64,000 nucleotides of DNA from Botryllus schlosseri. Lineage: Eukaryota. Below, one piece after another: positions 7,870 through 40,142 of this stretch. Numbering within the stretch: position 1 is the first letter of the stretch; the number at the start of each line of letters is the position of its first letter. Below the pieces are notes generated by a model that saw only the letters and a program-made list of their open reading frames with translations, had not been told where the DNA came from and searched no databases. The stretch is from contig CM119371.1 of assembly GCA_051294905.1 (NCBI GenBank), positions 16,494,001 through 16,558,000 of the forward strand, written 5' to 3'. Made by a program: the position numbers and the translations under genes.

Positions 7870-8892
7870 GTAAGAATACAACGTAGGCTATAGCCTACCT
7901 GGACTAGGTCAAAGTACACCTTGCTATTTTGTGGCTCACATTTTATAGGGTCCATGCAGGCTGATAGATATTGACATTTCCGAACTTCAGATGTACAAAT
8001 TAGTTGAGCAGTTATTTGATACTAACTTCTCTCCATCCAAGAGATCCGTAACTTTCCCTAGAGCAGAAACACTGATTTCTTTGGAATGGTCGTGATAAAA
8101 TGGAGACAAAAATTAATTTACAGGTTGAACTACTCCCTAAAAATGTATATAGCTCGGTGGTCCTTAACCGGTGGTCTATGGAACACTAGAAGTTCCATGA
8201 GCCCGTCTCAGGGGTTTCGCGGAGCTCATAAACTCAACTGATATATACGATTTATGATGGTAGGCTCGTTTTAGTCATCGATCATCGCAGGCAAGTACTC
8301 CCAATCAGTCTTCTGATTGTGACTGCTGTGGGGGCTGCGTCGTCTGCAGTGGCGTACGCTGGTGAGCTGGGCGTTTAAAACCTATGCCGCGACCCACTGA
8401 AATGCCAAATCTATCTCCAATATTAATAAGCTCATTTGTAATTAGGTTGTTGGTATCACGCTGTAGCGGTTCGACCGAACTATATACGATGAAACTTTCC
8501 AAGGTGTGGACTCACATTTCTGAACTAGTATCTGAAAGGGAACAGCAGAAGTTGCAGTGATTTGCAATAAATAGTCAAAATATTGTTTTCGTTGTTTGTG
8601 AAAATCACATGCTAATATTTTAATTGTTTTTGCACTGTATGATGATCCACAGTTCAATTTGTACATCTGTAATCAATTAGATGTGTAGTCGGTTGAGTGT
8701 TGTGGTCGCTTTTTGTTTTTATGACTCATCCAAAAATTGGGGTTCCACGAAGGCTTGAAGATTAGCGTAAGTGTTCCGTGGGTTACTAAAGGTTAGGAAC
8801 CACTGATATATCTTGAATGTTAACAATGGTAAACGATAATGTTACATATCATATGATGACCTGTTTTGGTAGCATAGGCTACAACATATATC

Positions 8893-10592
8893 GCTAATGG
8901 TAGCTACACCGACGATATTCGACTTAGAAGAGGACTCCGCCAAGTCTGTCCCGTAAGTATGTGCCTTTACGCACTCACAGCTGAATCCATAACGCAAAGG
9001 ATCCTAAGAAATGCAAAAATAAAAATAAAACTTTAAAGTCGGACAGTTCCAACTTGAGATTTTACAGTACGCAGATGACTTGACGATCATCACCACCGAC
9101 TTGGAATCCATACAACATACTGTTGACGAATTTACATACTTTGAAAATGCAACTGGTCAGATAATGAATAAACAAAAACTGAAATACTCAGCCTTCACTA
9201 CAAAGCCTATTCGTCGAGCAAAAATAAACTACATGAAAATATCAAGCCAACTTCGGTGAAGAACAAATAAAACAACATGGGGCGGGGTTACCAGGAAAAT
9301 AGAAAAATGACACTATAGCAACAATCAACGTAATTTTACCTGGTGTGGAAAAACACCATCATAAACTCGATGATATCTAGTGCAATCAGCTATCATGCGA
9401 GATCCATCCCCTTTCATCGGAGACAACTGCCAAGCTAACAAAACTAGTTTTTCAATATCTATGGAGTCCGAAAAAAATTGAAATAATAAAACGAAACAAA
9501 GTTATCAGGGAAACACCAAAAGGTGGGATTGATACACTGCACGTTCGAAGTAAGATCAAGGCATGCAACATGCAAGTCATCGCGAAGATGTCGAACCTCG
9601 ACAAACCTATGGAAATGTGGCGCTGCTATACTCTGTATGAATTAGGGCCAACGATAAGAAAATGGAATCCAAAACTCTTCACGAATAGTAGGCCGCATAG
9701 AACCCACTTGAATAGAAAATGGAAAAATATCATTAAAACAGCAAACGAACTAAATTGGAAAGTGGAAGGTTGGCAACATGCACATATGGAAGCAATATAC
9801 TTTGGAGTTAAAAAAAATTGCATGAAAGCAAGACCGAGAAATCGAATACAGAGATTTCGTGGAAAAAAGTACGCATGAAAGATAAAGCCATAAACAAAAT
9901 CGTGAAGAATAAAGAGAAATTCATATCTTTTAGAATAGCACACGATGGCTAATTATTCGGAATGCAAAGAATAAAGAAGAACATAATGATGCCTAAAAAT
10001 GGGACATATGCCGTGACGAAATGCCGTCAATGTGGCTCGCAAAACGAAAATATCATGCACATAATGTACTACTGTAAATCATCAAGAAAAATCCTAATGA
10101 ACCTGGAAAGACTCCTATTTGGTACAACAGGTGGCCAAAGGGGTCTTCATGGAAATAAAATACAATGCATTGACACGAAAAATAACACAGACGCTGGGAC
10201 GTTTATCCTAGGCTTATGCAAAGGAAAAGTCATATAAAATAGGATGAGACTTGAGATGGAAAACTGAATGGAAGATGATACCGATATCTATGTACTTAGA
10301 ACATGCAGATCCGTATACAAAACTGCCTTCAGGAGACTCAGCACCCAAGATGTATTACCAACGTCCCTAGAGTCTCTAAAAGTCTTCTTGAAAAGGAATA
10401 ACACAAAACCCAAAGTAACTTGCTGCCTCCTCACCACGAGTTCCGAAAAATAAAACTTATCTATTACTATCCTAACTTATAAATGACTGACTGTTCCAAA
10501 TATATATAACTGATGTGATAAAGACCCCGAGCAGGGTGTAGCCCTAAAGAGAGGGCTGCTGAACGCTGGCGTATACGGAGAGCCGTAAAAAA
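8893..10592 (+). mobile_element. Second, 5'-deleted copy of the same LINE inside duplication copy 2
   Basis: Colinear with 4015-5710; retains QYADDL (cagtacgcagatgacttg, ~9065), which copy 1 has deleted. Confidence 0.92.
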
Positions 10593-11061
10593 TAGAAACA
10601 CAGTATGTCATCAACAGTGTACGCATGACTTCAGTGTTGCCAGCCAACAACTGCTGCTGTTGAAAGTCCCTTCTCCATTCTTCGAACCTACTTAGTAAGC
10701 ACTGACACTTTCTGCCCTATAATGTAGGAAAGTATCTTTCGTTGTAGCCTATTTAACAAATTTCAAATATTTCTACTATAATGCGTGATGTAATTATTGG
10801 AATTCTTCATAGGTCCAGATTTCGTCAAAATACAGTTTTTCATCTGAAAATTTGACAATTTTCGAGTCAAAAAGTATTTTCATGCCAAACTACTTAGTAT
10901 AGACAGATAGTTCCAACTAGAAATGAAGATAAGTAGTACAAATCTAACAATATGTGCGAAAACACCAAATTTAAATATATGTAGTCTAAATTTTTTCAAG
11001 GTCATTACACCTAAATGATTGAAGACATTCGCCCAACTGAAGGAAATCAGGATATGTAAAC

Positions 11062-12192
11062 CAGAGGTGGTCAGTAATGAAGTACTTCTACTTTTTGAAG
11101 TACTCAAGTAGTTTTCTCTACTTCTGTTACTTACTTAAGTAGATCTGATTTTCTCTACTTCTACTTATAATTCGTAATATTTTCTGATCTACTTTCTTAC
11201 TTTTCGCTATTTTAAGTTTTTCTAGTAGAAGTAGTTTAATCCCCCAATATGAATGATAGCCTGAAGATTTTCGGGGCTGTTCCACGGGGTACCAACATTT
11301 AATATTCATAAAATTAAAGTAAAGCCTAGAATTTAGGTGCGCTTCGCGCATAGTTGTTATCGAGTCACAAATATGTTTTCACGAAAGTATCAGAAAATAT
11401 AATTTGGGTACCTGATTGCTTGGTTCCGCTCATACCGCATTGTCGCCCATATCAAATATTCCATCACAGTAAATATGGCTCACCATAACGTTTGAAACTA
11501 CCGTTTCGCAATCTAGAAATTACCTCTTATATTGTAATCTAGCAGCCCATGACGTGTCCTGCTAATCTGGAAAATCCGGCTTTTTTGAACGTTACACCTT
11601 GTTTTAGCAGATCACATTTGAAGCTTTTTGGAAGTGATAATTGTGTTTCACTTTCAATTACGAGTATCATACAACTATTTTTCGAAAATAACGCTAAACT
11701 AAATATAAATTTTACGAACCACAATATTTTTTATTACCGTATACTATTCGCGGAAAGTGTTGAAACAGTATCCGATACAACTTCTCCGTATTGCTCTTCG
11801 CCTAAATTTTGGGCCTTATAATAAGGGGTAGGGCGCCATGCCATAATATTTTCTAAAATGAAGTATTTCAGTAAACAAATGATTAGTATAGCATTTTTAT
11901 ATACTTCATATACTTTCAATACTACAATTTGCATCCCTTGTTCTGTCGAACATGGATACCTCCTGGGATGCATCAATACGAATCAGGCTCTCTGCACCTT
12001 CCGCCTAACTCAATTTGCAGCTTTTTACAGTCTATGCGAACGAATTGAGAATGTTTTCAAAACTACTTATTTACTTGAGTAGATTTAAAGCCCGTCAATT
12101 CAACTTCTACTTCAAGTATGTTTAGTTGGCTGATGAAAGAAGTACTTATACTTCTACTTGAGTAGCTTTCGTGACTACTTTGACCACCTCTG
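11062..12192. mobile_element. hAT-type MITE with TACTT-rich subterminal repeats
   Basis: TIR CAGAGGTGGTCA/TGACCACCTCTG; TSD atgtaaac/atataaac; empty site in copy 1 (~6170). Confidence 0.92.
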
Positions 12193-12676
12193 ATATAAAC
12201 GCATCTAGATATTCCAAATATACACGCAAAAACCCCGGCCTATCAACTTTTGATCGCAGATGAGGCTTGTATCGTCTCTGGCTCAACCCTTCTTTTGAGT
12301 GACGAAATGCACTCAATCTGTGACTGTTATTTAGTGACTTAACCCGTTTTCAACCATATGGCAGTGTGAATCCAGATTCAGCAAGGAGTGTGGTTAGAAA
12401 CGAAACATCGTAATCTATTGGGAGCAGAGCATGGCAATGGTTAAACCGATGCAAATTCAAGCCCCGGCTTCAAAAATTGACGGACAGTATGCAGGCGCAA
12501 CAATCGCATTGACAGTGCAAATTAACCATTAAATTAAACGTTGAAATAATTTATCAATATTTGCAATCGTGAAATCAAGTTATTGTGTTAATTAAAACTT
12601 GATAAAATACTAGAATTTTTTAATTATACTTTTTCGTATGGCCACATTTGTCTGTCTACTGATATTAGAGTTTCAG

Positions 12677-14781
12677 CATAGTGTCCTATATGGTGTCGAC
12701 ACAAGCAAATCGCACGGTTCAATGAAATTGTATCACGTCACAGTTTCCATTTGGCTACAGGCAATTTGACGGTGATTTTTGACCGACTTGCCGAGCATTA
12801 AATTTGATGAATCGGGTATCAATCGAAAGCTGACGCTGTACTGCTTGCGAAAATATAAATTTTATTCCACTCATGGCCCTGGAACCCCCACAATCTGCCC
12901 CAAATTATTCATTGTCGAGTAGATTGGCAGTGTGACGCAACAATGATGTTTGGCGAAACGAGAGACTAGCTCAAGAGCAAGGATGCGGCCGAGCGGCGAG
13001 AGTGGGATCAGCTGACGTCGCGGCAATAGCAATGTGCAGCCGCGCCACAGAGAAACGCTGCGCTGTTGATTCTTTTTCTATGCGTTTCGGTACAATATTG
13101 CGAGCACACACCAGCCTTTCCTTGACTTGTAAGGGTAGAACTGGGTCCACGGAATGTATTAGGGCCCTACCAATTTTCGCGCAATATCCTTCAGCTGATA
13201 GAGATATGTAGGCTACGTCTAAGTAGTCTACTCTACATTGGATATGTCAGATTAATATGATATCGATTGCCTTAGCCCGCTTGTTGCGTAGGGCTCCAGA
13301 GATGCGTGGCGCTGTTGATACTTTTTCTATGCGCTTCGCTAAAAGCGAGCACACACCAGCCTTTCCTTGACTTGTAATGGCAGAACTGGGTCCACAGAAT
13401 GTATTTGGTCCCTACCAATTTTCGCGCAATCCTTCAGCTGTTAGAGATATTTCTAGTAAGAAAAATATACTTTCAAGTAATAAGATTCACTCAAGACAGC
13501 AAATTTAGATAATGTAAATATATCATATTGTAGTAATACAACTACAGTGTTGAGTTTTCACTCTGGTCCCCATAAGCACCACGTCGGTGACCTTGCCAAA
13601 TTCCGAGATGGCGAAAAAGTGCAAACTCTGTTGGGCCGAATGGACAATGGACATTAAGTTATTCACAGATGCGAAAAAATACTGCAAATCCGTTTTACGT
13701 AAGTTACATTAGGAATATATATACAGGCTACAGAATGAATATAATTCAAATATCTGTGATACCACTGTATTACTTTTGACGCAAAAGGTCCCCGGCATTC
13801 AAAAAAACTATTTGGTGATTGAAAAATGCTAAACCAAATTCCAACGTCAACGTTTATAGTGATATCAGATATATTCCAGTGAAAAACAAAGGTATGAGTT
13901 TGGTGGTAACATTTTGGAATCATTTGGCAGGTATGGCCCGCAAGCTTTCTAGTAACGGATTGAATCCGGACAGCGATACCAGTTTAATTCGACACTCCTG
14001 CTGTTAAACTTTATTCAACAATCAACATTTTACCTGCTGCATTCGCGTTGCATTCGATCAAATAAAAGCTTGTAATGTATGCTCATGCTCAATGCTCCTT
14101 GCTCACACTTAACCATAAAAGCGACTATAGAAAGTATCGACACCCGCCATCAACAGCGCGACGTGTCTCTGGAGCCCTACGCAACAAGCGGGCTAAGGCA
14201 ATCGATATCATAATAATCTGACATATCCAATGTAGACTACTTAGACGTAGCCTACATATCTTTATCAGCTGAAGGATATTGCGCGAAAATTGGTAGGGAC
14301 CAAATACATTCTGTGGACCCAGTTCTACCCTTACAAGTCAAGGAAAGGCTGGTGTGTGCTCGCTTGTACCGAAACGCATAGAAAAAGTATCAACAGCGCA
14401 GCGTTTCTCTGTGGCGCGGTTGCACATTGCTATTGCCGCGACGTCAGCTGATCCCACTCTCGCCGCTCGGCCGCATCCTTGCTCTTGAGCTAGTCTCTCG
14501 TTTCGCCAGACAGCATTGTTGCGTCACACTGCCAATCTACTCGACAATGAATAATTGGGGCTAATTGTGGGGGTTCCAGGGCCGCGAGAGGAATAAAATT
14601 TATATTTTCGTAATCAGTGCAGAATCAGCTTTCGATTGATATCCGATTGATCAAATTTAATGCTCGGCAAGCCGGTCAAAAATCACCGTCAAATTGCCTG
14701 TAGCCAAATGGAAACTGTGACGTGATACAATTTCATTGAACCGTGCGATTTGCTTGTGTCGACACCATATAGGACACTATG
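12677..14781. mobile_element. Non-autonomous foldback element with ~620-bp TIRs, possibly P-superfamily (Galileo-like)
   Basis: Termini CATAGTGTCC.../...GGACACTATG; 7-bp TSD gtttcag; empty site in copy 1 (~6641); no ORF. Confidence 0.9.
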
Positions 14782-15425
14782 GTTTCAGTATTACTTGATA
14801 TATTTTTCTCCGTTTAAGACACTGGTTCTTCAACTTTTTACACTGATGTTCAAATCTGAGGTTCATTGACATCTCGCGGTCCAAGTCACACATTGGTCGG
14901 GTTGCATAGGATTGCTGGTCTCCTTTTCCATTTAATTTGAGTCGCCTTTTAAAAAGATTGTCGACCACCGCTCTACGCGCAACTGGGACGCAGTGTAATA
15001 CAATGTTTATACCACAACTTGTTGGTACTATTCAAACTTCTAGAACTAGATTCAAGCATTTGAGGCCCCTACTTCGCACTCTGTATTGTTGACTTGATCG
15101 AAAAATATTCAAATCGCAAGAACGAATTGCCACTTCTGGAAACGAGTAATGTTAATGTTCTGTCGGGCATATAGCTAGTTCGGAATGTACAGGAAGATAT
15201 GGGCTAAAATGTTATCGTTCCCGAAATAACTATATAACCCTCCTTCGGACAAAATTTTCAAGAATCAGTATAGATATTGGCGATTCAAGGTTTTTCTTAT
15301 TTTTCTGTTTAATTTTCTATCTTTTTCATACCATAATGAAGTGAATGACAGGAAGATTAAATTCCCGCACTATCTACGAATTCTGTAAAATTTGCATATT
15401 TCACTGAAGCGTTTACAGGATAGAG

Positions 15426-17952
15426 CAGTGCTCTTCAACCGGGGTGGTCGTACACCCTAGGGTGTACCAGAATTTGCAAAGGGTGTACCACTCGGATGGG
15501 GTGTACAGGGGTGTACCAGATCCGAATTACAATGAGCCGATGGCTAGCTATCACAAAGGCAGGTTTATGGGTCAGGACAGGTTGACGCACAGGTTAATGA
15601 GCATGCAGCACCGTAACTGCCACGCCCCAAACCCTCCAATTGGGGGGGGGGGTGAGCTCGAAGGGGGCCCCAAATTATTTCGTGAATTAACATAAATTAT
15701 AGCGTATTTTTTTAAAATTTATGCAATTTTTTCCAAAATTCCAAGTTGGCAATTATGTTCATTATTTGATACTCTTACCCCAAGAACAAACACGCAACAT
15801 TTATAGAAATGGACATATCGGCGTTGGCCATTAACACGTCACCACGCACCAAGATATATAATGATTTAGTACTTATTACATGCGACTCCAAGAAGTGTGC
15901 CAGAACGATCGGCAGCGCGAAAAGCTTGGCCGAAACGGACTGCCCTTACGCAGACCGAAAACTTCGTTATATATACCAAATAATAGGTTAAATTGTCCAG
16001 AGGCGCCTAAATGACTGGCGCCATATGTTCCTGTCTTGGCAATCTGAACCTCAGAAGACAAATACCATCCAGCAAGAAAAAAATATATGCCAGTGAAGAA
16101 ATACCAATTTGAAATCGTGTGCGTCTTTTAGTTTAGTACGTTAGAGCAATTTTATATTTTTGATATATCAGACAGGAGGTCACGAAATAAAATCATGTAA
16201 CGAAGTCATACCAACGGGTCCGCCCACCCGAAAATGTTTAATTATTATTTATGGGCCCTACAGTTTCCGGTAAATCTGATAACATGAGCAGAGAGGACAA
16301 GATATTGATAGCAATATATATGCAATGCAATCTTATTGGCCGATTGTATCATGAATTATCGAAAATTTTCGCGCTTCGAGCTGGCACACTAAACAGTGCA
16401 GCAAATTTCTCGACAAAAGCGAACACTGTGATGAGGGGTCGGTTTATCACCCTATGAGAACGCAAAACCCAAGTTATTGTGGGGGGGGCGGGGCTGACGA
16501 AGTGCTGTTTAGTTCCTGCCAACGGGTATACGCCCAAATATGTCTAATTATTATTGGGATGTCCTACAATTTTAAAACAGACTTCGCTCAGCTCTACCGG
16601 TAAATCTGATTACGTGAGCAGAGAGAGGATCAAAATTGATAGCAATATATATGTAATTCCCGATCATATTGCCCGATTACATTCTTGAATTACTGAAATT
16701 ATTCGCGCTTCGCGCGCCTAGGCGGGAAAAGCGGTCTCACATAACGTACACCCAGTGGAGATGTGAAATAGCGTCAAAAAGCGGATAGCCAAGGGGGGTC
16801 TGGGGGGCGAAGCCCCCCATAAGTTAGGTTTATCACCCCATGGGGGCCCTAGGCCAACGATTTGGGGGGAGCTGACGAAGTGATGTTACGGCCCTGTGAG
16901 CATGGTACGATGTTATCTCAAGTGTAATACTGTACACCGTTTGATTGTGATGTCATAAGCACAAATCGCCCGTAATCATTTAGCCGTCGGCAATAGACCA
17001 ATGGCTCCGTTTGGTGTTGGAAAGTATGCAGTTAACAAACATGTGTTCAGCTAGTCATTTGTCTTTTAGTGATTTTTGAGGAAACCGCCGCGATAGCTCA
17101 GACTTCTTGAATCGGTACTTCATACCCGACGTTAATAAATACCGCAATGAAAATAAAAAAGTGACGTAGCGAGCCAGGGTCGAAACAGCATCCATGATGA
17201 AATCGAAACCCTTTTGTTTTAAAATGCCGATGTTATGTCCAATATTTCGCCATACATTTGTAATTTAATATTTTGTTACTAGTGATGCAAATTAGCGACA
17301 ATAGACTGTGTATAGCAACATAGGATCTGAGGTTACTGACATCTCATGCAGCCCATGTGCTTCTGTCGACTGTGTGTGGTGTGGGGCAGGCCTGATACGC
17401 AGTAGGCTGGTGCGCCTGCTATCATCGCTGATCTGAATTACCGCTTCTGCAGCAGTAGCTTTACCTATTCTCCCCCAATACTGTTACATTTAGGTTGATT
17501 ATCGTTCGTAATGTCATGCTGTTTTGGGGCTGACACGAAATAAATTCCAATTTGCGTGACAGGCGGCCTAACTGGCGGCGAATAGACTCTGTGACCAAAT
17601 ACTATTTTATTCAAATCCAAATTTTTGACGGCAATAACTCCGCTTCTACTGGTTGGAATTGAACCAAATTTGAAGAACATCGTTTTTATAGACAACATAA
17701 TACTTTCATCGGGTGAACAGAAAAATTTCAAATTTTTCGTTATTTATTTTTTCCGTAGCAATGCGGCTACTGGTTGGAATCGAACCAAATTGGGTGTGTA
17801 GGCTTAAATTAGGTAACCTAACAATTTTATCAAGTAGCCAGTACGATTTTAGAAAAAAAGTCATTTTTGAAGACCCCTAATGAACAGGGGTGTACGAGTT
17901 TTGAGCAAACGTTAAAAGGGTGTACCACTCCGAAAAAGGTTGAAGAGCACTG
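15426..17952. mobile_element. hAT MITE containing a nested insertion
   Basis: TIR CAGTGCTCTTCAACC/GGTTGAAGAGCACTG; TSD ggatagag; empty site in copy 1 (~7520). Confidence 0.92.
15606..16896. mobile_element. Nested hAT-like element, CAGGGCCGTAAC family (inverted relative at 31565-33575; fragments near 61.5 kb and 62.7-63.3 kb)
   Basis: TIR cagcaccgtaac/gttacggccctg; TSD tgagcatg. Confidence 0.88.
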
Positions 17953-18206
17953 GGATAGAGCATATTGAGAGTCTTATATGAACGCCAACCGCCGAATTGC
18001 GCAGGTTCGCACACTGAAAACGAACTCGAACACACTCTTAGCGCTATGTCTATATCATCGATGCCTGAATCGACTCGGTAAACCCGTTAAAAGGAGGCAT
18101 CAGCGTGGATCGGTGACATTATTTCCTAATATTTCTCCATAATGATTCTGTTATGAACAAAGGTGTTCGATTTTATAGGTTTAACAAATATTTCATTATG
18201 TTCCAG

Positions 18207-18308
18207 AGCTGTATGGCCACATGCCATCTCCTCGACCTCGAACTCAACCTCCAGCTCCACCTCCACCCCCACCTCTACCTCCACCTCTAAGAGGGATCGA
18301 ACACAGCG
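18207..18308 (+). CDS. Internal exon, polyproline module copy 3, ELYGHMPSPRPRTQPPAPPPPPPLPPPLRGIEHS
   Basis: ttccag| ... |gtaaga; 102 nt, phase 1-1, no stop. Confidence 0.75.
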
Positions 18309-19816
18309 GTAAGAATACAACGTAGGCTATACCTGGTAGGTTAAACTACGACTTGCTACTTTGTGGCTCACATTTTATAGGGCCCATGCAGGCTAATAGA
18401 TATTGACATCTCCGAACTTCAAATGTACAAATCAGATGAGCAGTTGTTTGATACTAACTTCTCTCCATCCAGGAGATCTGTAACTTTCTCTAGAGCTGGA
18501 GCACTGATTTCTTTGTAATGGTCGTGACAAAATGGAGATAAAAATTAAGTTACAGGTTAAACTACTCCCTAGCAATGTATAAAGCTCAGTGGCTCTTAAC
18601 CGGTGGTCCATGGAACACTAGAAGTTCCACGAGCCCTCTGGGGTTTCGCGGAGCTCATAAACTCAACTAAAACATACGATTTATGGTGATAGGCTCGTTT
18701 TAGTCATCGTTCATTGCAGGCAAGTACTACCAATCAGTCTTCTGATTGTGACTGCTGTGGGTGCTGCGTCATCTTGCAGTGGCGTACGCTGGTGAGGTGA
18801 GCGTTTGAAACCTAAACCGTGACCCACTGAAATGCCAAATCAATCTCCAATATTCATAAGCTCATTTGTAATTAGGTTGTTGGTATCACGTTGTTGCGTT
18901 TCGACTGAACTATACGATGAAGCTTTTCAAGGTGTAAACTCATATTTCTGAATTAGTATCTGAAGGGAACAACAGAAGTTGCAGTGATTTGCAATAACAA
19001 CTCAATATAATGTTTTCGTTGTGTGTGAAAATCACATGCTAATGGTTTAATTGTTTTTGCACTGTGATGATCCACAGTTTAATTTGTACATCTGCAATCT
19101 ATTAGATGTGTAGTCGGGTGCGTGTTGTTTTTATAACTCATCCAAAATTTGGGGTTCCGCGAAGGCGTGAAGATTAGCGTAAGTGTTCCGTGGGTTGCTC
19201 AAGGTTAAGAACCACTGATATATCTTGAATGTTAACATTGTAAACGACAATGTTAAACATCATATGTTGACCTGTTTTTTTGGTAGCATACAGCATATCT
19301 CACTTGAGCTAGTCTCAAAAGTCTCAGATTCTCTTACTCGTCGATTCACTAATGCAGTGGCTCCCAAACTGGGAGGCGCGCCCTCCTTTGAGGGCGTGAA
19401 AGCATCTGAAGAGGACCGCAATGCTATGGTCAACTAGAATTTATTTTGCGCTCCGACCTATTTACCTCGAGTTCGTAGTTATTGCTCTGTGTATATAGTC
19501 CAAATTTAATATTTGAGAATTCTCACATCAACATTCATAACAGTCCATGCCATTAAACTATTCATTGGTTTGCAGTTTGTGATATGTCGATAAGTGGCTC
19601 AAAATTTCTCATCATCATAAATCGGGACGTGTCTAAAAAGTTTCGAAAACCACTCCACTAAACGATCGAAAAAATAGAGAGGTTTTTGGCGCAAATCGCA
19701 GGTATTGTGATTATGTTAGTTAGAAAAGAATCCCTATTATTCGAAATTATCAGTTCGTCCGGAATAAGATGTGTATTTATGTATTCTATTCAAAATGTTT
19801 ATTTTTAATGTATCAG

Positions 19817-19888
19817 ATACTGTTGACGATGAGGAGTATTATCCCTTTTACGAATATCCTACTGCAGGAGAATTCCAACCTGACAATG
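19817..19888 (+). CDS. Internal exon, acidic and Tyr-rich, DTVDDEEYYPFYEYPTAGEFQPDN
   Basis: tatcag| ... |gtgaga; 72 nt, phase 1-1, compatible with the neighbouring exons. Confidence 0.7.
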
Positions 19889-28650: not shown

Positions 28651-28887
28651 TATTTTAGTGTAAGGACCATGTACGGTACACACTGTAGGCGAAGGGTGTC
28701 AAACTCAACTTGCATCGTTGGCTGGATTTAAACCTTCAGATCGCTCGCGGGCCGCACCAGTCAAATGATTTCAAAATTTTACCTCAAAATCCATGTCCTT
28801 GCTTTTCTTTATAATTCTTTATTATTGGGCCTTTATAAAGCCTACCATTCTAGCTACGCCGATATTCGAAAACAGTGGAATTTTTTT

Positions 28888-31092
28888 CGAGATATGAAAT
28901 ATCCCTAATTTTTTGAAAAATTCAATTTTTCACCCCCCTCTGTTGTCAAGACAAGGAATTCTGATGTAATAAACACTGTTTTACCGGCAATAATAAAGCT
29001 TTAATTAGCAAACAAGCATTCTATGTTAGATTCATACAAATTTGAGTTGTCTTTATTGAAGTTTTATGCCCCGGAATTAAAAATAGGCGTGCAAAAGAGC
29101 AACCATAATAAAATTGAATGATACATTATGCTGACGAACATGTGGATAGGACAGTAACAAGGTATTAGCTGAATTACAGCAGTTCCAACAAGTATAGGAC
29201 TCCGTAGATCCAATTAAAATTTTTAATTGATAATGGCAAATTAAAAAACAAAATTTTTCAATTTTTCTGCCAACCCCATGAAATTGTTGAGCTGTCTTCA
29301 AAGACGATGCAAAACAAATTTGACTCAATTCCAACCAGTAGAAGCGGAGCTATTTGAGTTTTTCGTTGAAAATTTTCGGATTATCCTTGATTGGTGGATA
29401 ATACGAGGATTATCATCGAAAAACTGAAATAACTCCACTTCTACTGCTTGGAATTGAGTCAAATTTGTTTTGCATCGTCTTTGAAGACAGTTCAACAATT
29501 TCATGGGGTTGGCAGAAAAATTGAAAAATTTAATTTTTTAATTTTCCATTATCAATTAAAAATTTTAATTGGATCTGCGTAGTCCTACACTTGTTAGAAT
29601 TGAACCAAATTTGGTGTGCAGCGTTTTTTACGGTAACCTGACAATTTAATCAGTGAACGGCTGGAATCCGGAAAAAAAAGTTATTTTTGAACAGCCCTAA
29701 TGTGCATAGTCATTCCAATGAAGTGCAGAAATTCTGAAGACAAGGACTTGGGCAGGGCCAGTTCAGAAACAGTAAAAAACAGCTTTCATAAAATATGACC
29801 TCTTCACTTATAAGCTTAAAAATTCTCTTTTGAGGGACTTTCTTTTACGAACAGCATCTGGAATTTCTCTTTTCCAACTCCATCAATAGTCGGCTATCAT
29901 ACGAAAATCCAGGTACAGGTGGCGACGGTGTCCTTGTCCTTGTTCGTACCGGATTTTTACTGGTGTGGGAAATAAATGAATCCATAAATCCCACCGGCCT
30001 TGAAAACGTGCCTCTATAATTTGAATATCTTGGCTGAAACGTTCACCCTGTTCTTTACTAACTTTCCCAAGGTTTTGTCTAATCTCATCCGCATGGCTCT
30101 TCAAATCGTTAAATTTGATGCTCTTCTTGCATTCCAAAACTTCATAACTAAGCAGTAGCTCCCTTGAGAGATCTTTATAATTTTCTGCTTTTCTGTTTCC
30201 CAAAAAACAGCACCGAAAGCATTCCAAGCTCAAGTCTCGAATGGCAACATTGATTGTACAAGATTTTAATCATTTAACAATTGCCTAATTTGAGGTCCAT
30301 TGAAAATCCCAGTTCTTTTATCTTTTCACTGAGACCAGAAAAAGCATAACATATATCATTTAAAACACCCCCCTTCACAATCCAAAGCTTTTACATATTG
30401 TTTCATGAGACCAAGTTTGATGTGAAGAGGAGGCAAGAGGATCTTTTTTATATCAACAAACTGATCACGTATGATATTTTTGTCTCCCGGCGTCAAGGTG
30501 AACCTTGGAGGTCTCTCATCCATGTTCCAGTGGGCAGTGGTGATCCTTGACCCTGCTGTCCCGGTAGCATAGAAAACATGGATATTCGGTGTAGCCACTT
30601 TGTTGCCCCAGCAAAAAGTTCACCATTTTCAAATCTAGACAGATGAGCCAGCCATGGTCATGCTACTATACAACTTTTCGAGAATGGTTTTGATGTTCTG
30701 ATAATCTTCTTTCATTGTTCATTGCGATAAAATGTCACGCTTGTACCAGCTTTGTTATTTGCTCTTTTGCCAGCTTGTTTTTTATTCCAAGACATGAAAT
30801 TTTATTAGATACAACACAAATTTGTTTGAATATAATATAGAATGCTTGTTTGCTAATTAAAGCTGGATTATTGCAGATAAAACAGTGTTTATTGCATCAG
30901 ATTTCCTTGTTTTGAAAACAGAGGGGGTCAAAAATAGATTATTTTTTTTCAAATTAGGGATATTTCATATCTCAAAAACGTGATGTGATGGAGAAAATCT
31001 GAGGCCATTTTCGGAATCAGCGCCCCAAAATTAGCCAAAATCAATTGTCAAAACCCAAACCTGAAAAAAAAGTTGAAATTTGTAGACCAGTG
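28888..31092 (-). mobile_element. Chapaev3-like (CMC) DNA transposon remnant with broken transposase
   Basis: Fragments LLPPLHIKLGLMKQYVKAL and NLGKVSKEQGERFSQDI..EARFQGRWD; CAC terminus (CACTGGTCTACAAA on -); 28888-29045 is an inverted copy of 30815-30973. Confidence 0.8.
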
Positions 31093-31134
31093 TGATATTA
31101 GTTGTTATATTTATATGTCCCCTTTGTCTTAGTG

Positions 31135-34032
31135 CAGGGGCGGGCAACATACAGCCCGCGGGCCGGATTTGACCCGCGAGGGGATCTTGTCAGGCCCGCG
31201 AACTGTTTTCCGTCTGACATGATAATGTGGCCGGCGGCCCCAGTCTGCCAGATTCCCCACTACTTACTTACTAGGACCAATTTTAGTGACTGTATGTCAT
31301 TATATACGCGTATGCGCACTGCATCGTGCGAGAGTGGAGCTTACGCGTAAGTTCGTCGAAGCGAGAAGACTTGCATTATCGGCATTTACGATGTAGGCTA
31401 CTCAACCCTAATGTCGTTTGTGGTAATCATGGTGTTTGTCGACTACAATGGTCATTTACATGAGGCTGATATTTCTTAATTTTGATTCCGTAACTGCCGA
31501 CATGTAGCACCTAGCACGGCACACTTATTCTAGGCTTTTGTAAGACACCGCTTATTTTCCAGTACAGGGCCGTAACAGCACTTCGTCAGGCCCCCGCCAA
31601 AACGTTGGTGTTGGGCTCCCCATATTAGGGATGGTGTGAACGTGAGGTTCACGTTCGCGTTCTGTGTGTGAACCTCAGATTTTCGAGGTTCACGTTCACA
31701 AACGAACCTTGGTAGGTTCTGCACTGTGAACCTTTTTCATTGATTACCATGGCGCTGGCAGCATTTTAAAAAATCAACACCAAGCGGGCATGCACCTTGC
31801 CAATCTCAAAAATTTTACATGCTTTCTTACAAAAGTTTACTCCATATATCCAGCTTTCCGTTTGTGAATATTTAGTGACTTTTTGCTGTGAGCTTGACCC
31901 GCAAGCACACAGCACCAAGAACGAAATACACCACATGTAGGTAGTCGCCGAATGCTGCTTATTCAATCAATCAATGAAATTGATATCGTTGCCTGATGTA
32001 AAAAATCTTTCAGGCGTTCGGGGTCGATCTTGATTTCATATCTATATTGAATCATAAAAACCAAATCCGTGCGATTGGGGTGTTGACTATACTGCCGTAT
32101 AACTTGTTAATAGGGTAATATCGGTGGCAAGTAAAGAAACCCGTTTTACACTCTGCTCAATATCAACGTAGCATTTGGCGACGTTTACAATGTCGATATA
32201 TACTTCAGCATTGTGTCATTATGTGACCCGAGTCGTCGCTAGGTATCGGGTACATTAATATAGGCTATCACTTCACTGAAACGTAGGGTTGGAATTAGCA
32301 ATATGACGTCACGTGACGTCATGAGGTTCACGTTCGTGTTCACACAGAACCTTTCAAAAAGGTTCGCGTTCACACGAACCTGAACCTTTCGGAGGTTCAC
32401 ACCAGCCCTACCCCATATAATGATGAACCGAATTTCTGTTCTCGCCTAACGCGCGAAAAGCGAAAATTTTGTATTATTCTTGATTGAATCGGTTAATATG
32501 GTCGCAGATTGCATATATATCGCTATCAATTGTCATCCTCTCTCTGCTCACGTAATCTGATTTACTGGTAGAGCTGAGTGAGGCATGTTTGAAATGGTAG
32601 GACCCCTCAATAATAATTAAACATCTTCGGGCGTATACCCGTTGGCAGGAACGAAACAGCACTTCGTCAGGCCCCTCCAAAAAACTTGGGTCTTGGGCGT
32701 CCATAGGGTGATAAACCTAACACCAATCACGTTGTTCACTTTTGACACGAAATGAGTCGTACTGTCTAGTGAGCCAGCGCCAAGCGCGAAAATTTTCAAT
32801 TATCCATGATAAAATCAGTCAATAAGATCAGGAATTGCATATATATTGATATCAATCTACTGTCCTCTCTGCTCACGTAATCAGATTTACCGGTAGAGCT
32901 GAGTGAGGTGTCTTGGAAAATGTAGGGCCCGTTGGTATGACTCCGTAAGATGATATTATTTTGTCACCTCCTGTCTGCTATATCAAAAAATATATAGAAT
33001 CGCCCAAACGTAGGCTTCTAAACTAAAAGACGCACCCGATTTCAAATTGGTATTTCTTCACTGGCATATACTTTTCCCTGCGGGATGGTATTGGTCTTGT
33101 GAGGTTCAGATTGCCAAGGCAAGAGCATTCGGCGCCAGTCATGTAGGCGTCTATGGACGAATAAACATATGTGTATTTTGTATATATAACGAGGTTTTCG
33201 GTCAGCATAAGGGTAGTCCTTTTCGGCCAAGGTTTTCTCGCTGCCGATCATTCTGGCACACTTCTTGGAGTCCAATGTTACATGGCCTAAAACTTGATAA
33301 GTCTTGGTGCATCGTGGCGTGGTAATGGCCAATGCCGATATGCCCATTTATATAAATCTTCCGTATTTTTTCTTGGGGGGAAGAGTACCCCAAAATCAAT
33401 ATATTTATTTGGCAACTCGAAATCGGGCGGAGCGCAAAAATTTTTTGAAAAAGTTGGATAACTTTTTGAAAAAAATTGTCTATAATTTATGCTAATTCGC
33501 GAACTAATTTTGGGCCCTCTTCGAGCTCGCCCCCCCCCCAATTGGGGGGTTTGGGGTGCGGCAGTTACGGTCCTATGCCAGTGGTTGCCAACTCAAAACG
33601 GGTCGCGGGCCACTATTTTAATTTCGTAGAGGACGAAGGCCGCCGCATGAATTCAATATCGAGATTGGCCACTCATGAACAACAACTCTATCTCGTCATC
33701 TACTCAACCCTAATGAATTGATATCTTTGTAAATTTGGGGTACTGGACTTATCGGACGCCTTGAAATCTTAATTAATTGATCTTAATTGATCAGAGAGAA
33801 CCATGCAGACATGGTGGCGCCTTTATGACAACGCTATTCTCAAATCCACATTGTCTTCGTCGTTATCGGCGAGAAATGGCTGTGAAGTGACATTGCTGTC
33901 GTTAAAATACATTCATTAAATACGGTTTATTCCTTGAATATGTAATGTATCGATTCAGCAATCCGGCCCGACAAGTAGCCTACCTAATTTTTCTATATCG
34001 GGCCCGCCGAATGGAGAAGTTGCCCACCCCTG
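31135..34032. mobile_element. hAT MITE (level 3) containing 31565-33575 (level 4), which contains 31626-32410 (level 5)
   Basis: TSDs tcttagtg (exact), ttccagta/tgccagtg and ccccatat (exact); TIRs CAGGGG.GGGCAAC, CAGGGCCGTAAC and TAGGG.TGGTGTGAAC. Confidence 0.88.
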
Positions 34033-34425
34033 TCTTAGTGGTATTCTTGCGTCAACCCTGCGTATGCGTTGAGAAGAATACACGAGATTTAATTGTAAAC
34101 GCGGGCGTTGTAATTTGCTTCATTATTATTAACGAGTTTCTCTAGGGACCAGAGACCTTTTGAATTATATGTCCGCGTAACTATTATAATCTGCATGTAA
34201 CCTGCATTTAGCCCTTTCGCTTCTGTATTTGGGTCCATTTTCCATAAAACTCTAAACATGCACTTATTTGCTGTCTCGGAATTGGATGCCAATGTTAGCG
34301 ACTTGCTCCTAATGGTGACTGGAGGGAAACCACTAACACCTCTGGCGGGCGGATATATAGTGGCCAATTAACGTAATACACAGTGCTTAGTAATGTGCTG
34401 GAAGATACACACATTTTTCAATTTA

Positions 34426-34744
34426 AATTTGCTTTTCGGAGTACAGAACTTCAATATTGCATCAAATAATACGTTCATATTGCAAATTTATTCGACTCGA
34501 AGCTTTTCGACTGACCCTCTTCAGGAGTGACCGCCCGTAAATGAGGTTAACCAAGTTCGAAATATAGAAAGAATTTTGTCGTTGTGACGACTATGTGTAC
34601 TTGTCATTATTACGTCACAACGACAAAATTCTTTCTATATTTCGAACTTGGTTAACCTCATTTACTGGCGGTCACTCCTGAAGAGGGTCAGTCGAAAAGC
34701 TTCGAGTCGAATAAATTTGCAATATTAACGTATTGTTTGCTGCA
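34426..34744. mobile_element. Palindromic Penelope-like insertion (two inverted pLTRs, no ORF)
   Basis: Arms 34468-34589 and 34613-34734 with a 23-nt spacer; 13-bp flanking repeat atttttcaattta; tail motif gtacagaactt shared with the other PLEs. Confidence 0.85.
34674..34707 (+). ncRNA. Minimal hammerhead ribozyme motif (mirror copy on - strand at 34495-34528)
   Basis: actc-CTGAAGA-gggtcagtc-GAAA-agct-TC-gagt. Confidence 0.78.
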
Positions 34745-35013
34745 ATTTTTCAATTTACTTAGAATTGCTTCGCGGGCCGGATGCGGCCCACGGGCCGTGT
34801 GTTTGACACCCCTGTTGTAGGCAATCAGCATCGATTCACCTTGCTGCATAGCGCTACAGTTCATTGTCACGTGCTTGAGCTTGAGACATGTTCATTTAAA
34901 GAGAGATATGAGAGTAAAATATCGCTCTTCGTCTTTTCACAGAAAATAGCGGACCCCCAAATGCTTTATCACGGACTGTCAAGGGTTAAGTGGTGCCAGG
35001 CTGGGAACCACTG

Positions 35014-35060
35014 GTCTAAGTGAAGAAATCCAACTGAGCACAGATAAACGGCGGGAGTGA
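35014..35060 (+). pseudogene. 28S rRNA-derived fragment, right part
   Basis: aagtgaagaaatccaactgagcacagataaacggcgggagt versus LSU AAGTGAAGAAATTCAATGAAGCGCGGGTAAACGGCGGGAGT (recalled from memory). Confidence 0.65.
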
Positions 35061-35149
35061 TTGGTATCCCGTCGCAATAATCAGTACCGAAAAAGCAGAC
35101 CCTGGTTTTAAAAAGACATTGCTGACTGCTAGTGTAGCCTAAATGTTAT

Positions 35150-35990
35150 ATTACACGGGGAAACACAATTCATGTTGCCTCTTGATTCAACAATTGTTAT
35201 CGTCCAACTTTCGGGCACTGAATCCAAAATGACTTTCATCTCTATCACGTCTAGTTTTGGAGTCACCACTTTCCCCATAACCTCCAAAAAGTAGGCTACC
35301 ACATTTTAAATACTGCCATTATTGTTTTGAACGTTTCATGAGCTACAACCAAACAAAAATAACTCAGCGGTCTTCAAATAAACATTTGTACTGCAATATT
35401 TCTCTAATTCAAACGGAGATTACCACTGTATGACAGATAAAGTGCGAGTTGGTACAAGTTCAAGCAGATAGCCCGTCATTCTATGGGTTGTCTTGCTTGA
35501 CACTGCCGCAATTATCAGGTAACATATTTAAGTTCCTACTTTCCTATTAATATCTTCCCAACATTACCCGACATTCCCGACATCATGGTGGATACTTTTT
35601 ACTTGCTCGTCGCTGAACATACCAAGGTTTTCCGCAGAATTAGAAGTATGACTTTTCGAAAAATATGCATTTTGATTCTCATACCATGCTGTGGACCGGT
35701 TCGTTGTCGCTTTCAATACATTTCGGATAATTTCAATGTCAATCTCTGCCGTGTAATCTAAAGAAATCCCATGACAAATGATAATCACGCATTTACTCCA
35801 ATTCTGAGATTGACCCACTCAAACGCCAATTCTTGATGCGCAGTTGAATTAGTCATCCATCAGATGCACCAGTAGTAATATTTTGCATAAATTAACTGAC
35901 ATAAATCAGCTTTGTGATGGTCCGAAAATGTAAAAAACTTGATGTCTTCGGTAACTGCAACCGCAATTTTCAGTAGCATTTGGTTCGGTT
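35150..35990 (-). mobile_element. Highly decayed second Chapaev3-like remnant
   Basis: ENLGMFSDEQVKSIHHDV motif; subterminal-like gcactgaatccaaaatgac...tctatcacg. Confidence 0.55.
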
Positions 35991-36505
35991 TTAAAGTACG
36001 TGGAATCGGAGTGAAAACCAGAGCTTTTTAACCCACTCCGGCTCCGACTTCAGCCAGTAGCCTATGTGCTTCCACAACTCCGACTCCAAGGAGTGCTGCA
36101 GGTTTTTGTGACTCAGACTCCGACTGCAAGAAGAGAAAATTTATCGAAACTCCGACTCCGCTGCCCGGCTGCAGACATGATCAACCCACACCATTCCCAC
36201 AAACTGCATTGATATCGGCATGATCGAAAAAGGCCTAAAATGGTAGGCTACATATTTGAACTTTCACATCTTACATACTGACATGATTTCGTAATGAGCT
36301 ATACTCGAAAATTCAACTCGAATCGAATCGTAATTCAGAATCGAAACACTCAGGTAATGGATTTTGCCCGGCTCTACTATCGACATCATTTTGTGACAGT
36401 ATAGGGCTAGGAGCAAGTCTGAGATGTGAGGACGACTGCATTGCACTTGCATGAATCAATTGTTTTATATTGCTTTGATTATATGATATCTACACCACAT
36501 TCTAC

Positions 36506-37468
36506 CAGTGTTGGGATGACTCGAGTCATGACTTGACTCGAGTCAGACTCGAGTCATCTTTTTCGTATGACTTGACTTGACTCGAGTCACTTTGCTAAAA
36601 TGACTTGACTTGACTTGACTCGGCGTATCAGAAATGTGGATTGACTCGTGACTCGGAGCTTAATTCACGAGTCAATTTCAAGTCATCAAGTAATCGGTGC
36701 CGATAAAAATCTGTATCTGTAATATGTTTGGATTTTCGCAAAACGCTGGTGTAACCCATGAGACTGCGACCACATTCAATGATCGTGCGTTTTACTGGGC
36801 CTCAATTGTTCTCTCACAAATAAATTGACCGCAAACGAAGGAATCGAAGCTTATGGCTTACGTTGTCGTAAACTAGTAGTACAAGTAATTGAATGGCAAA
36901 ATGTATTTTTCTATTCTCACCTTAAGCAAACCTCTTGTTTTATTGAAATTGAATTCGAATATGTTTATATAGTCCCCAACCATTGGTGCAGGCTCGAATT
37001 GTATCATGGGTAATGTATTGCGTCTTATCAATTCGTTCTCAATCAATTCTCTATTCTCTATTTTGGCTGGTAACTATCAACTTAAGCTATGTAATTACTT
37101 ACGTAGTTTATCAGTTCTACATACATGTGAGTGATACAGCGCCTTCCTGCGTGTATATTCAACTTTATATTCGTTTAGCGGTTGAGAATCAATGACCACT
37201 TAATATGTATTTCAGACAGCTAGCAAAATGCAATGACGTAATCATGCCTCGATCATACTTCGAAAAGGCAACTTGACTTGAATTGTGACTTGACTCGTGA
37301 CTTGACTTGACTTGACTCGACTTGACTCGAGTCACCTCCAAAAATCGAGTGACTTGACTTGACTCGAGTCACCTTTTAAAATCGATTGACTTGACTTGAC
37401 TCGAGTCAAAATGTGCAATGACTCGAAATGACTCGTGACTCGAAGGTAGTGACTTGATCCCAACACTG
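36506..37468. mobile_element. hAT MITE with (GACTT)n/GACTCGAGTC subterminal repeats; inverted truncated relative at 40143-~41050
   Basis: TIR CAGTGTTGGGAT/ATCCCAACACTG; TSD cattctac. Confidence 0.92.
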
Positions 37469-37774
37469 CATTCTACCACATCGTTCTAATACTAATTATC
37501 ACATAGATAGCGTTATGGAGAATTTACAGAACTTTCGAAACTCAGATGAGAGTATAGTCAAGGCTGATATAAATAGAACCGAATATGGAAACATTGTTAG
37601 ACATCGTGCAATATAAGCAGCTGTCAATCAGAAAAGTATTCTTTAACTATTTTCTAACACGGATAGGTGCGAAGCATCAAAGCAATGGATACGGTGTTTA
37701 ATGAGGAACTATGTTCTACTTAGGCCTATTTTTATAACCATGAGAACCAGGTTACTTTGTGACATTGTCTAGAA

Positions 37775-38570
37775 TAGTGGTTCTCAACCGGAGGGGTCCG
37801 CGAAGCCTCAAAATAGTTGATAATCTGATTTGTATTTTTTCAATTCGGAAAATCACGAGACAGTTTCGCTTCATTATTAGTAAAACTCAAGAGCTCACAT
37901 CAACAGAATGGCCATCTGAGAAGAAATGTCCTACTGTGCAGACTCATTCTAATTGCTAAATTGCCAATAGCGTAGGCCTACTGATACTAACATTATGCTG
38001 ATAAGAGATGTTTTGTTGGCGATTGTGGAAAAAAAATTGGATGAGTGAGGTCAATCACCGTGACTTGAAATGTTTACAAAAATCCATGTTTCCATAGTAA
38101 CTTCAAGATAAGCTGCTAGATAGATATGACCGGGATGGAAGTTATATAATCATTAAAAAATATTTGTCAATTTTGGTGCCATATTTGTTGCGATCATACC
38201 CAAATGTGTCGTCGGAAGCGTCACGCGTTATCATTACATTCGCCACCACATATATTTGTGGAAATGGATTTCGGCACTTGAAGGCGCGGATTTTAAAAAC
38301 ACGACAACGTATTTCAAGAAATGCAGTTGCAGGATTCGCTTTGAAATGATAGAAATCAACCCAATTTCTACACGAATAGCATATGCTCTTATTTTCAAGA
38401 AAAGTCATTTTGTTGTTGTTCATCACTGAGCCTACAGTTATCATTTGCACGAGACAGATGACGATTGCACGAATATTGAGCTAAATTTGAACTCAAACTT
38501 TTGGGGGGTCCGCGGGGGTCCGTGGCGGTTCGAAAGGGGTCCGCGAAGACAAAAAGGTTGAGAACCACTG
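37775..38570. mobile_element. hAT Buster/Charlie-like MITE (second copy at 55896-56908)
   Basis: TIR (t/c)AGTGGTTCTCAACC; TSD gtctagaa. Confidence 0.92.
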
Positions 38571-39738
38571 GTCTAGAACGTGTTTGTTACCAAATGCAAA
38601 TCGTAATCCTTCAGGGCTTCAATGGGTATCTCAATAATTTTCTGATATTTATCAGAGAGGTTTTGTTTCCAAATCATGGATTTTTACCGATTGAGATGAC
38701 ATTGCTGCTAGCATCTTATCAAGTGGACATAGTGAGCCAATATTCATCAAACACCCGACATAATGCGAATTATATGGGTGTGTTGTGGCTGTATGGACCA
38801 TTATTTTCAAAATTAATACAATTTGTCTTCACGCAAACTAATACTTCTCATTGGTTCGAACCGTCTCCAAAACATACGGGTTTAAAATGGAAACAGAAAC
38901 CAGGTTTCTATGGTATCGACACGTTCACGGTTATGTAAGCTAATTCGGCTAATGAAACCGGATTTATTGCAATTCCGGATTTATCTATTTCCGAATATAC
39001 GACTCCATTTATTATTATCGTAACTCTGGAAAAATCATTTATGACTAGCTCCTAACGTTCTTGCTTCATTACCTGAATTACATTGGAAGATTTTCAATGT
39101 TTGTCAATTAGATAGGAACTTTACTTCTGGCACCATGATTGCATATTTGCAGAGAAAATCCTCATAATGCGTTGCTGGAAGCATCAAAATTAGGCACCCC
39201 AAGGAATTGTATGTTTAGTCCTGTTTATGCATAGATGATGATCAGTAACGATATATTTCTACTATATTTCGAAGTATAGCCTACTCCAGGGATGTCAAAC
39301 TCAACTAGGGTCGCGGGCTGGATTCAAACATTCAGATCGCTTGCGGCCGGACCAGTCAAATGATTCCATAATTTCACCTCGAAATCCTTGTTTTTCACGT
39401 GAATGCTTTATTATAGAACAATATATTATATTAACCACAGGGGTTCTATTAATATTATATTCTTTATTCACAACAAAACTGGTGAATGCACACATAATCC
39501 GGGGAGCAACCTGCCCCCAAAGGAAAATGGCGAGACTGGAGTAAATTTTTAAAATTTCAGTAATACAGTCAAATTGGTATTCCTATGCAATACATGAAGA
39601 GGTCAGATTACAGGATTGCAGTAGACGAAGAATTGGCAAGGGTTACAGAGCAGAGGCAGAGATGATGGAAAATGAAGAATCGAAATTACAGAAATTATCC
39701 TGTGATTCACTAGTGTAATTTTAGTCCAGTGGTGCATT

Positions 39739-40142
39739 TTAGGCCTTCCGAAGAATATGCACAGTGCCCAATAAAGTGATCTTTTGGATCATGTCGAATC
39801 GAACGTTACCCGGAATCTGTTGGATATGTCTCATGAGTTTTTTGCTTACGACACCTGTAGCGTCAATGACTATCGGTACAATGTTTATTTTGCATCGCCA
39901 CAATTTCTCACATTTCATTTTGAAGTCTGCGTATTTCGATTGTTTTTCTGATTCTTTTTGCAGCATATTGTGATCAGATGAGACGGCCAGTTCAGTGAAT
40001 AAGCATTCTCTTTTCCTCTTTAGTTCGATTACCATATCCGGGCGGTTGCTCCTGATTTCGCGGTCAGTTATAACTGATAGGCCTATATCCCAAAGAATTT
40101 TTACTTGATCGTTTTCTGTCACTGGTGCTGGGCTGTAATCAT
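39739..40142 (-). mobile_element. 3' end of an RLE-type non-LTR retrotransposon (R4/Dong- or NeSL-like restriction-like endonuclease)
   Basis: KILWD..TDREIRSNRPD...ELAV...KESEKQSKY...VPIVIDATG; truncated by a MITE at 40143. Confidence 0.85.

Follow-up and report, generated by a model that had tools for sequence, protein, structure and literature searches.

When Sleeping Beauty excises it leaves a footprint in which three terminal bases, the middle one ambiguous, stand between two TAs, for a net insertion of 5 bp (bioRxiv 10.1101/659086, PMC4378557), and it also leaves many shorter footprints (bioRxiv 10.1101/659086). In the available parts of the other sources, mariner insertions in rice are described as exceeding excisions by about 2.6–2.8:1, with mostly messy excision scars (PMC4423477); PHIS elements are often GG-initial (PMC4482050), with ISL2EU duplicating AT in A-AT-T (PMC4482050, PMC4122938) and PHISTA representing a TA-duplicating PHIS/Harbinger lineage of rust fungi (PMC12730594); and Academ / IS3EU elements make a 3–10 bp duplication (PMC10045372).

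The motifs analysed here resemble the Sleeping Beauty/Tc1-mariner footprint (TACAGTA/TACTGTA) in that TA is duplicated, three inner bases are fixed, two strand-symmetric forms occur and the net gain is 5 bp. They differ from it in their inner bases (GGC/GCC rather than CAG/CTG), in having an 8-bp class, which a 2-bp anneal of GGC ends allows and CAG ends do not, and in occurring naturally about once every 2.3 kb with no element or transposase in hand; TACAGTA/TACTGTA itself is not enriched in the window, the whole 64-kb stretch of DNA analysed (6 vs 10.6 expected). As in the rice surveys, excision scars are read by genome comparison, but whereas the rice scars are described as heterogeneous and outnumbered by insertions (PMC4423477), here one stereotyped scar dominates and no element is visible.

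Other families fit less well. ISL2EU elements share with our scars an animal host, GG-initial TIRs and a 2-bp duplication, and tunicates appear in Table S2 of the available account (PMC4482050, PMC4122938); we reject them because they duplicate AT in A-AT-T and the scars here duplicate TA in R-TA-Y, and the equivalent AT-GGC-AT words show no excess (8 vs 9.5 expected). PHISTA shares the TA duplication, the comparison being with a partial description of a fungal lineage that has no link to this genome (PMC12730594). PIF/Harbinger, Nuwa, Pangu and Zator (3-bp duplication of TWA, CWG, TNA and ANT) are rejected because TA is all that is repeated in the polarised inserts, which measure 5 or 6 nt; the 3-bp-duplication words TTAGGCTTA and TAAGGCTAA occur 2 and 0 times. 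Academ / IS3EU elements have TAG or TA termini, with the duplication lying outside them, and we reject them because the whole insert is just 5–6 nt at every polarised site. No TA-duplicating animal family with GGC ends is named in the available text of the literature examined, and the accessible descriptions of Sailor, IS481EU and Mosquito do not mention GGC ends. As whole words, TAGGCTA and TAGGCCTA matched no paper, and the scar is absent from titles and abstracts in a wider literature search, outside which lie most subscription journals and Repbase reports.

Motif excess and target-site preference

The recurrence of the motifs across the window, reported in the first-pass annotation, is confirmed by 32 exact sites against 4.6 in shuffles: on the + strand 10 of TAGGCTA (inner bases GGC) and 15 of TAGCCTA (GCC), and 7 of the 8-mer. 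The excess over a Markov background, for which that annotation had proposed a k-mer comparison, is likewise present in the window, the 7-mer pair being observed 25 times with 4.6 (order-2) or 5.9 (order-3) expected and a mean of 4.2 and maximum of 10 in 200 dinucleotide shuffles, and the 8-mer 7 times with 0.4–0.5 expected and at most 3 in shuffles. Of all TA-N(1-6)-TA words, the two scar words deviate most from expectation and every other word is far weaker; TAGGCTTA (8 vs 1.1 expected) was discounted, since its occurrences include at least two pairs of paralogous copies, only 2/8 lie in RTAY and none is polarised. Some matches are not scars, about 4–5 of the 32 being expected by chance, and the density is about 27 above chance per 64 kb, that is, one per 2.3 kb. 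The same words may also be common in echinoderm and fish genomes.

Collapsing paralogous sites leaves 28 independent ones, with an R-TA-Y target at 23 (30% background, p=2e-8) and GTAC at 10 (3.8% background, p=4e-8). IS630-Tc1-mariner elements favour palindromic targets that carry A at −3 and T at +3. The same preference is found on the 28 independent sites (28/56 half-sites vs 33% background, p=0.006), as a weaker signal than RTAY.

Insertions at a pre-existing TA

GGCTA, GCCTA or GGCCTA has been added at a pre-existing TA, mainly in R-TA-Y and above all in GTAC. Five exact sites (7891, 8875, 40078, 37973 and 31394) were polarised by three independent routes, namely DNA paralogues, protein relatives and contigs of 4/4 runs, and at all five TA is repeated around the inserted bases (Table 1).

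Table 1. Motif sites and related features, by position in the window
Feature	Position	Strand	Observation
TAGGCTA scar	8875..8881	+	GGCTA added at ATAC site in copy 2 of three-copy repeat; copies 1 and 3 without the 5 nt
Shared older TAGGCTA (7884), then private TAGCCTA (7891)	7884..7897	+	GCCTA in copy 2 only, absent from copies 1 and 3
TAGGCCTA scar	40078..40085		Adds 6 nt (Gly-Leu) in frame to decayed endonuclease fragment of a non-LTR retrotransposon
TAGGCCTA scar	37973..37980		GTAC site; 6 nt absent from paralogues at 56112 and ~56290
TAGGCTA scar	31394..31400	+	GTAC site in multi-copy repeat; 5 nt missing in contigs
Degenerate scar	33012..33018	+	One substitution in second TA; 5-nt insertion vs paralogue ~16137 (pairwise alignment)
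TAGCCTA, candidate polymorphic scar	36058..36064	+	5-base-shorter contig spans site
Mirrored TAGGCTA (13209) and TAGCCTA (14248)	13209..14254		One within each arm of a 2.1-kb foldback element
Remaining exact sites, unpolarised (part 1)	991..63665		991, 10745, 18323, 22033, 25111, 27367, 27805, 32261, 33976, 35135, 35292, 36244
Remaining exact sites, unpolarised (part 2)			37721, 39277, 40561, 41406, 48732, 49942, 53324, 54967, 56112, 63580, 63659

The three insertions proposed in the first-pass annotation all stand, and the motif coordinates it listed are correct apart from 13208, properly 13209. At 8875 and 7891 the extra bases are confined to copy 2, as claimed; the 7884 motif is common to all three repeat copies (991, 7884 and 18323), and at 7891 the insertion together with that older motif forms a perfect 16-nt palindrome. 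The Gly-Leu addition in LWDI[GL]SVITD at 40078 lies in an ORF on the minus strand (39739-40158) encoding an endonuclease fragment that we take to be of RLE type; four protein relatives were found, and the three that span the site all lack two residues exactly there. At 31394 the five letters are absent from 49 contigs of run X1, 37 of X12, 10 of X5 and 17 of X6 (4/4 runs), and the best interpretation of the joint 31393-33701 is that this empty site landed on a second copy of a 15-mer.

Alignable paralogous DNA contains 12 motif sites, of which 3 are polarised insertions, 7 are common to all aligned copies and unpolarisable (991/7884/18323, 13209/14248 and 22033/27367) and 2 are neither; 10745 and 56112 carry no 5-6 nt insertion relative to their paralogue, and the paralogues of 36244, 31394 and 40561 are too diverged for polarisation. 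We read the 13209/14248 pair as a shared scar, the ends of an inner element being less likely. The comparison of run contigs with the window covered 12 of 195 indel rows and 24 of >16,600 loose ends. Over 35950-36197 a contig of run X1 with about half the depth falls 5 bases short, seen as a length and not as letters or a gap position, and a contig of run X12 over 35985-36197 is gap-free; a 5-base extra lies within 34075-34460. Such 5-base differences, seen in length alone, are no more than a hint of allele-level polymorphism.

Proposed origin of the scars and search for a parent element

Considering these results together, we suggest, with a probability of roughly 0.7, that the motifs are fixed 5-6 base TA insertions left as footprints by a TA-duplicating cut-and-paste transposon with predicted GGC...GCC ends, the likeliest maker being a putative transposase of the IS630-Tc1-mariner type, which was not found. 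The element would insert at a TA, duplicating it, and on exit would be cut with a 3-base stagger in the fashion of Sleeping Beauty, so that each flank would carry TA plus a GGC-3' overhang. Only two registers would allow a pair of such overhangs to anneal: full overlap (G-C, a G.G mismatch and C-G) would be repaired to TAGGCTA or TAGCCTA, and a 2-base GC/GC anneal would be filled in to give TAGGCCTA. Register enumeration agrees, pairing being obtained only at overlaps 2 (2/2 paired) and 3 (2/3 paired), and we attribute the occurrence of both scar lengths to this restriction; the products of unpaired registers, TAGGCGCCTA and TAGGGCCTA/TAGGCCCTA, have 0 occurrences in the window. Both orientations are present (10 and 15), as a symmetric intermediate predicts. 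The tiny scars may then accumulate while the elements themselves become rare, decayed or lost. Of the earlier reading as scars of a very active TA-targeting element, the TA insertions with cut-and-paste footprint geometry are upheld and the GGC-end model predicts both lengths; the parent and the present-day activity are not. Among the observations that count against the excision model, about 28 clean scars are accompanied by no element in 64 kb, unlike the messy and outnumbered mariner excisions of rice (PMC4423477); TAGGTA, TAGCTA and TAGTA, the analogues of the shorter Sleeping Beauty footprints, show no excess; and at 2/5 polarised sites an inverted template lies close by, complete at 7891 and a 5-bp stem at 8875.

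An element with GG...CC ends and a 2-base stagger (Tc1/Tc3-like, or a TA-duplicating PHIS such as PHISTA) is unlikely, although a GG overhang yields the same words in register enumeration, the 8-mer if both overhangs are kept and the 7-mers if one base is lost, and although GG-initial ends and a TA-duplicating rust-fungus lineage are both on record for PHIS (PMC4482050, PMC12730594, as far as available). It has zero base-paired registers, leaves the 25:7 dominance of the 7-mer unexplained and predicts TAGGTA/TACCTA and TAGCTA, which are both at chance (23 vs 24.6 and 22 vs 23.1 expected, both strands); moreover, the available text describes PHISTA from fungi only (PMC12730594).

About equally unlikely is a hit-and-run process in place of the exit of a resident element, that is, a sequence-specific insertion mutator at RTAY, being either an excision-prone element lost almost at once after insertion or a site-preferring nuclease with a fixed GGC filler. 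The lack of any element beside some 28 independent scars would suit it, as would their unusual uniformity next to the rice excisions in the available account (PMC4423477); against this, the scar geometry fits a staggered-cut transposase and the parent search spanned only 64 kb. No enzyme is known to make such a product without a transposon end. We regard as doubtful the broader conjecture that a TA-targeting element or nuclease of this kind, not described in the literature searched, stamps GGC/GCC/GGCC at RTAY in several invertebrate lineages, as a leading source of short insertions with almost no resident copies.

Local template switching or fold-back synthesis perfecting quasi-palindromes is improbable: the insertion does turn 7884-7897 into a perfect palindrome, a stem of 5 bp is completed by the one at 8875 and the 8-mer is its own reverse complement, but the flanks of 31394, 37973 and 40078 hold no such template, and local templating would not give one fixed word with other TA-N-TA words far weaker. 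Addition of G-rich bases by telomerase to broken TA ends before rejoining is very improbable, for although TAGG resembles a telomeric repeat junction, longer G runs are without excess (TAGGGCCTA 0, TAGGGTA 6 vs 5.2 and TAGGGCTA 3 vs 1.0 expected) and the TA duplication and RTAY preference are left unexplained.

The mechanism class favoured here, excision of a TA-duplicating element, is already known; the puzzle is the scar density and the missing parent. If the motifs are footprints, each marks a past insertion and excision, so that DNA-transposon traffic wholly missed by element annotation could be counted and dated from the genome, and the ratio of 7-mers to 8-mers would show how germ-line end-joining treats a defined overhang; the transposase of a parent that has GGC ends and prefers GTAC would be of a new or unrecognised specificity. 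Scars of 5 nt shift the frame, those of 6 nt add two residues, and the scars bias k-mer and motif-discovery results.

As the first-pass annotation had stated, the window contains no parent: a search for TA-flanked TIRs over all TAGGC...GCCTA and TAGG...CCTA pairs gave no TA-flanked GGC...GCC element. The only long-match pair, 13209-14254, was not taken as the parent because it lies within 643-bp foldback arms that extend beyond it and have a subrepeat in common with the interior; a look-alike search gave no match. Nor do we take the motifs for element ends, since no common sequence follows them once they are placed in one orientation. No GGC start at a TA occurs among the 24 loose ends covered, of >16,600. 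Pfam, applied to 78 of the window's 129 ORFs >=75 aa, a scan that left out short or frameshifted remnants, gave no DDE transposase and only reverse transcriptase, endonuclease and GIY-YIG fragments. Finally, a 22-nt word taken from a repeat of the window occurs in 0 viral contigs and at three metagenome loci, which were left unused, being one locus (98.9-100% identity) that matches the window over only 48-124 bases.

Motif excess, target preference and insertion status

The 7-mer pair TAGGCTA/TAGCCTA (10 and 15 exact matches) and the 8-mer TAGGCCTA (7 matches), here called scar motifs, are a real feature of the window, which has 40% GC and is rich in repeats (non-LTR retrotransposon fragments, MITE-like elements and foldbacks). 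Under a Markov background the expected counts are 4.6–5.9 (7-mer pair) and about 0.5 (8-mer), and 200 dinucleotide shuffles of the window gave means of 4.2 (maximum 10) and 0.4 (maximum 3); the k-mer enrichment that follows from the first-pass annotation is borne out here (25 versus 4.2–5.9 and 7 versus 0.4–0.5). Both rank strongest of all TA-N(1–6)-TA words in the window (P about 3e-11 and 5e-7), an R..Y context raises their enrichment, and in a wider scan (2–3 base repeats around 2–4 base inserts) nothing stood above the 7-mer except simple repeats and the subrepeats of local elements. Once paralogous sites were collapsed to 28 independent ones and the inserts taken out, the reconstructed target was palindromic, with R-TA-Y at 23/28 (background 30%), GTAC at 10/28 (background 3.8%), and A at −3 or T at +3 in 28 of 56 half-sites (background 33%), the last pattern being typical of Tc1/mariner targets.

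At five exact sites the motifs are insertions (table). In particular, the insertions first proposed at 8875 (five bases in copy 2 only) and 40078 (absent from 3/3 spanning protein relatives) stand, and that at 7891 is indeed private to copy 2 but makes a weaker case than was thought, because it completes a perfect palindrome with an older motif. Alignable paralogous DNA holds 12 motif sites; 3 of them are polarised, 7 are common to the copies aligned, and the remaining 2 do not qualify as insertions of this type. Some motif matches are thus no scars. Of the words sampled from 31000–40900, five public runs of one organism contain roughly half or more, and marine and seawater metagenomes small shares. 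Allele-level polymorphism is only hinted at, by five-base length differences in which the letters concerned were not seen: a contig of run X1 over 35950–36197, at about half depth, is shorter by five bases (the sole motif in that span being 36058), and one of run X12 over 34075–34460 is five bases longer than the window.

Insertion sites and other features of the window
Position	Strand	Observation
8875		five bases more in copy 2 of three-copy repeat; copies 1 and 3 without them
7891		as 8875; perfect palindrome with older adjoining motif
40078		two residues more than in 3/3 relatives spanning site; fourth match does not reach it
37973		six bases missing from paralogues
31394		five letters omitted in 49, 37, 10 and 17 contigs of four runs compared
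near 33012		sixth site; 5-base insertion versus paralogue, with one substitution
28534–28540, 56296–56302		5-base TACCG insertions versus paralogues, giving TA-CCG-TA
11735, 29629		possible CCGTA-type element ends
5312, 10209, 17799, 22730, 28340, 51864, 59517, 61979	+	TAGGCTTA; partly paralogous copies, unpolarised
8481, 8638, 12625, 19492		among several 2-base TA additions between paralogues
12677–14781		2.1-kb foldback; 643-bp arms (94.6% identity), internal 250-bp subrepeat, gene-less spacer; scar motif in both arms
31399–31413, 33701–33715		perfect direct repeat of 15 bases, copies separated by 2.3 kb; nested MITE-like elements between
31565–33575, 31626–32418, 36506–37468, 40143–41045		very high-copy MITE-like elements, one nested inside another
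41864–43196		184-bp inverted repeat (98% identity) around 231-aa ORF with weak GIY-YIG match
29883–30269	−	128-aa ORF inside inverted pair 28884–29112/30751–30978; no Pfam match

A proposed two-register account of excision

We suggest, with a probability of about 0.72, that the motifs are transposon excision footprints. In the standard model for Sleeping Beauty, as set out in the accessible parts of two sources (bioRxiv 10.1101/659086; PMC4378557), a staggered cut keeps three terminal bases per flank and repair yields TA + 3 bases + TA, a net gain of 5 bp that comes in two forms with different middle bases. The inner bases there are CAG, whereas the scars here carry GGC/GCC. With GGC substituted for CAG and all registers enumerated, the overhangs pair in two registers only, overlap 3 giving TAGGCTA/TAGCCTA and overlap 2 giving TAGGCCTA, and these predicted products are the observed scar classes; products of unpaired registers occur 0 times in the window, their chance expectation also being low. 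We infer an element whose transposase would cut so as to leave a GGC overhang on each flank, to be joined at overlap 3 or 2 into the 7-mer or 8-mer. A GG-ended element with a 2-base overhang can yield the same words, but should leave TAGGTA and TAGCTA as well, and both are at chance in the window.

New here are this account of both scar lengths, the target preference, further polarised sites reached by three routes, and the exclusion of ISL2EU. A literature search on the two motifs as whole words found no paper, and broader searches, with subscription journals and Repbase reports mostly outside their coverage, found no title or abstract on this scar.

Probable scars and no parent element found in the window

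The parent, a predicted TA-duplicating element with GGC...GCC ends, had not been identified in the window by the first-pass annotation, and our search there agrees, finding no independent TA-GG(C) TIR pair; moreover, no DDE domain was matched in 78 of the 129 window ORFs, and none of the 24 loose contig ends listed fits a parent end. ISL2EU starts with GG and is recorded for tunicates (PMC4482050, in part, including Table S2); its duplication, according to excerpts, is AT in A|AT|T (PMC4482050, PMC4122938), and it therefore fails as parent. Insert length excludes families that duplicate 3 or more bases. PHISTA shares the TA duplication but is described, in the part available, from fungi (PMC12730594), and the accessible portions of PMC8533490, PMC10045372, PMC9179366, PMC4455052, PMC5753468 and PMC10379824 contain no GGC-ended TA family.

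The real puzzle is the imbalance between about 28 stereotyped scars and no element found, whereas in rice, on the available text of PMC4423477, mariner insertions exceed excisions by about 2.6–2.8:1 (clean excisions, 8/94). Near-neutral scars, long accumulating after element loss, could be the cause. It seems unlikely to us that a hit-and-run TA-targeting element or nuclease, acting in several invertebrate lineages, stamps GGC/GCC/GGCC scars at RTAY and keeps almost no resident copies.

Other insertions and repeats

The TA-CCG-TA word, at only 9 versus 6.0 expected in the window, may mark another class of scar, left by a CCG-ended element. TAGGCTTA occurs 8 times in the window against 1.1 expected, always on the same strand. 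For the 2-base TA additions and the excess of TATATA (63 versus 42.6 in the window), we propose slippage or TATA-type footprints. The MITE-like elements, whose ends we take to be hAT-like, show contig depth orders of magnitude over unique DNA. The 231-aa ORF is presumably Penelope-like, and the 128-aa ORF, we assume, resembles the C-terminus of a Chapaev3-type transposase. Finally, an animal-like metagenome contig (L001:1-11443; L002 and L003 are the same locus) carries 6 scar-motif matches in 11.4 kb.
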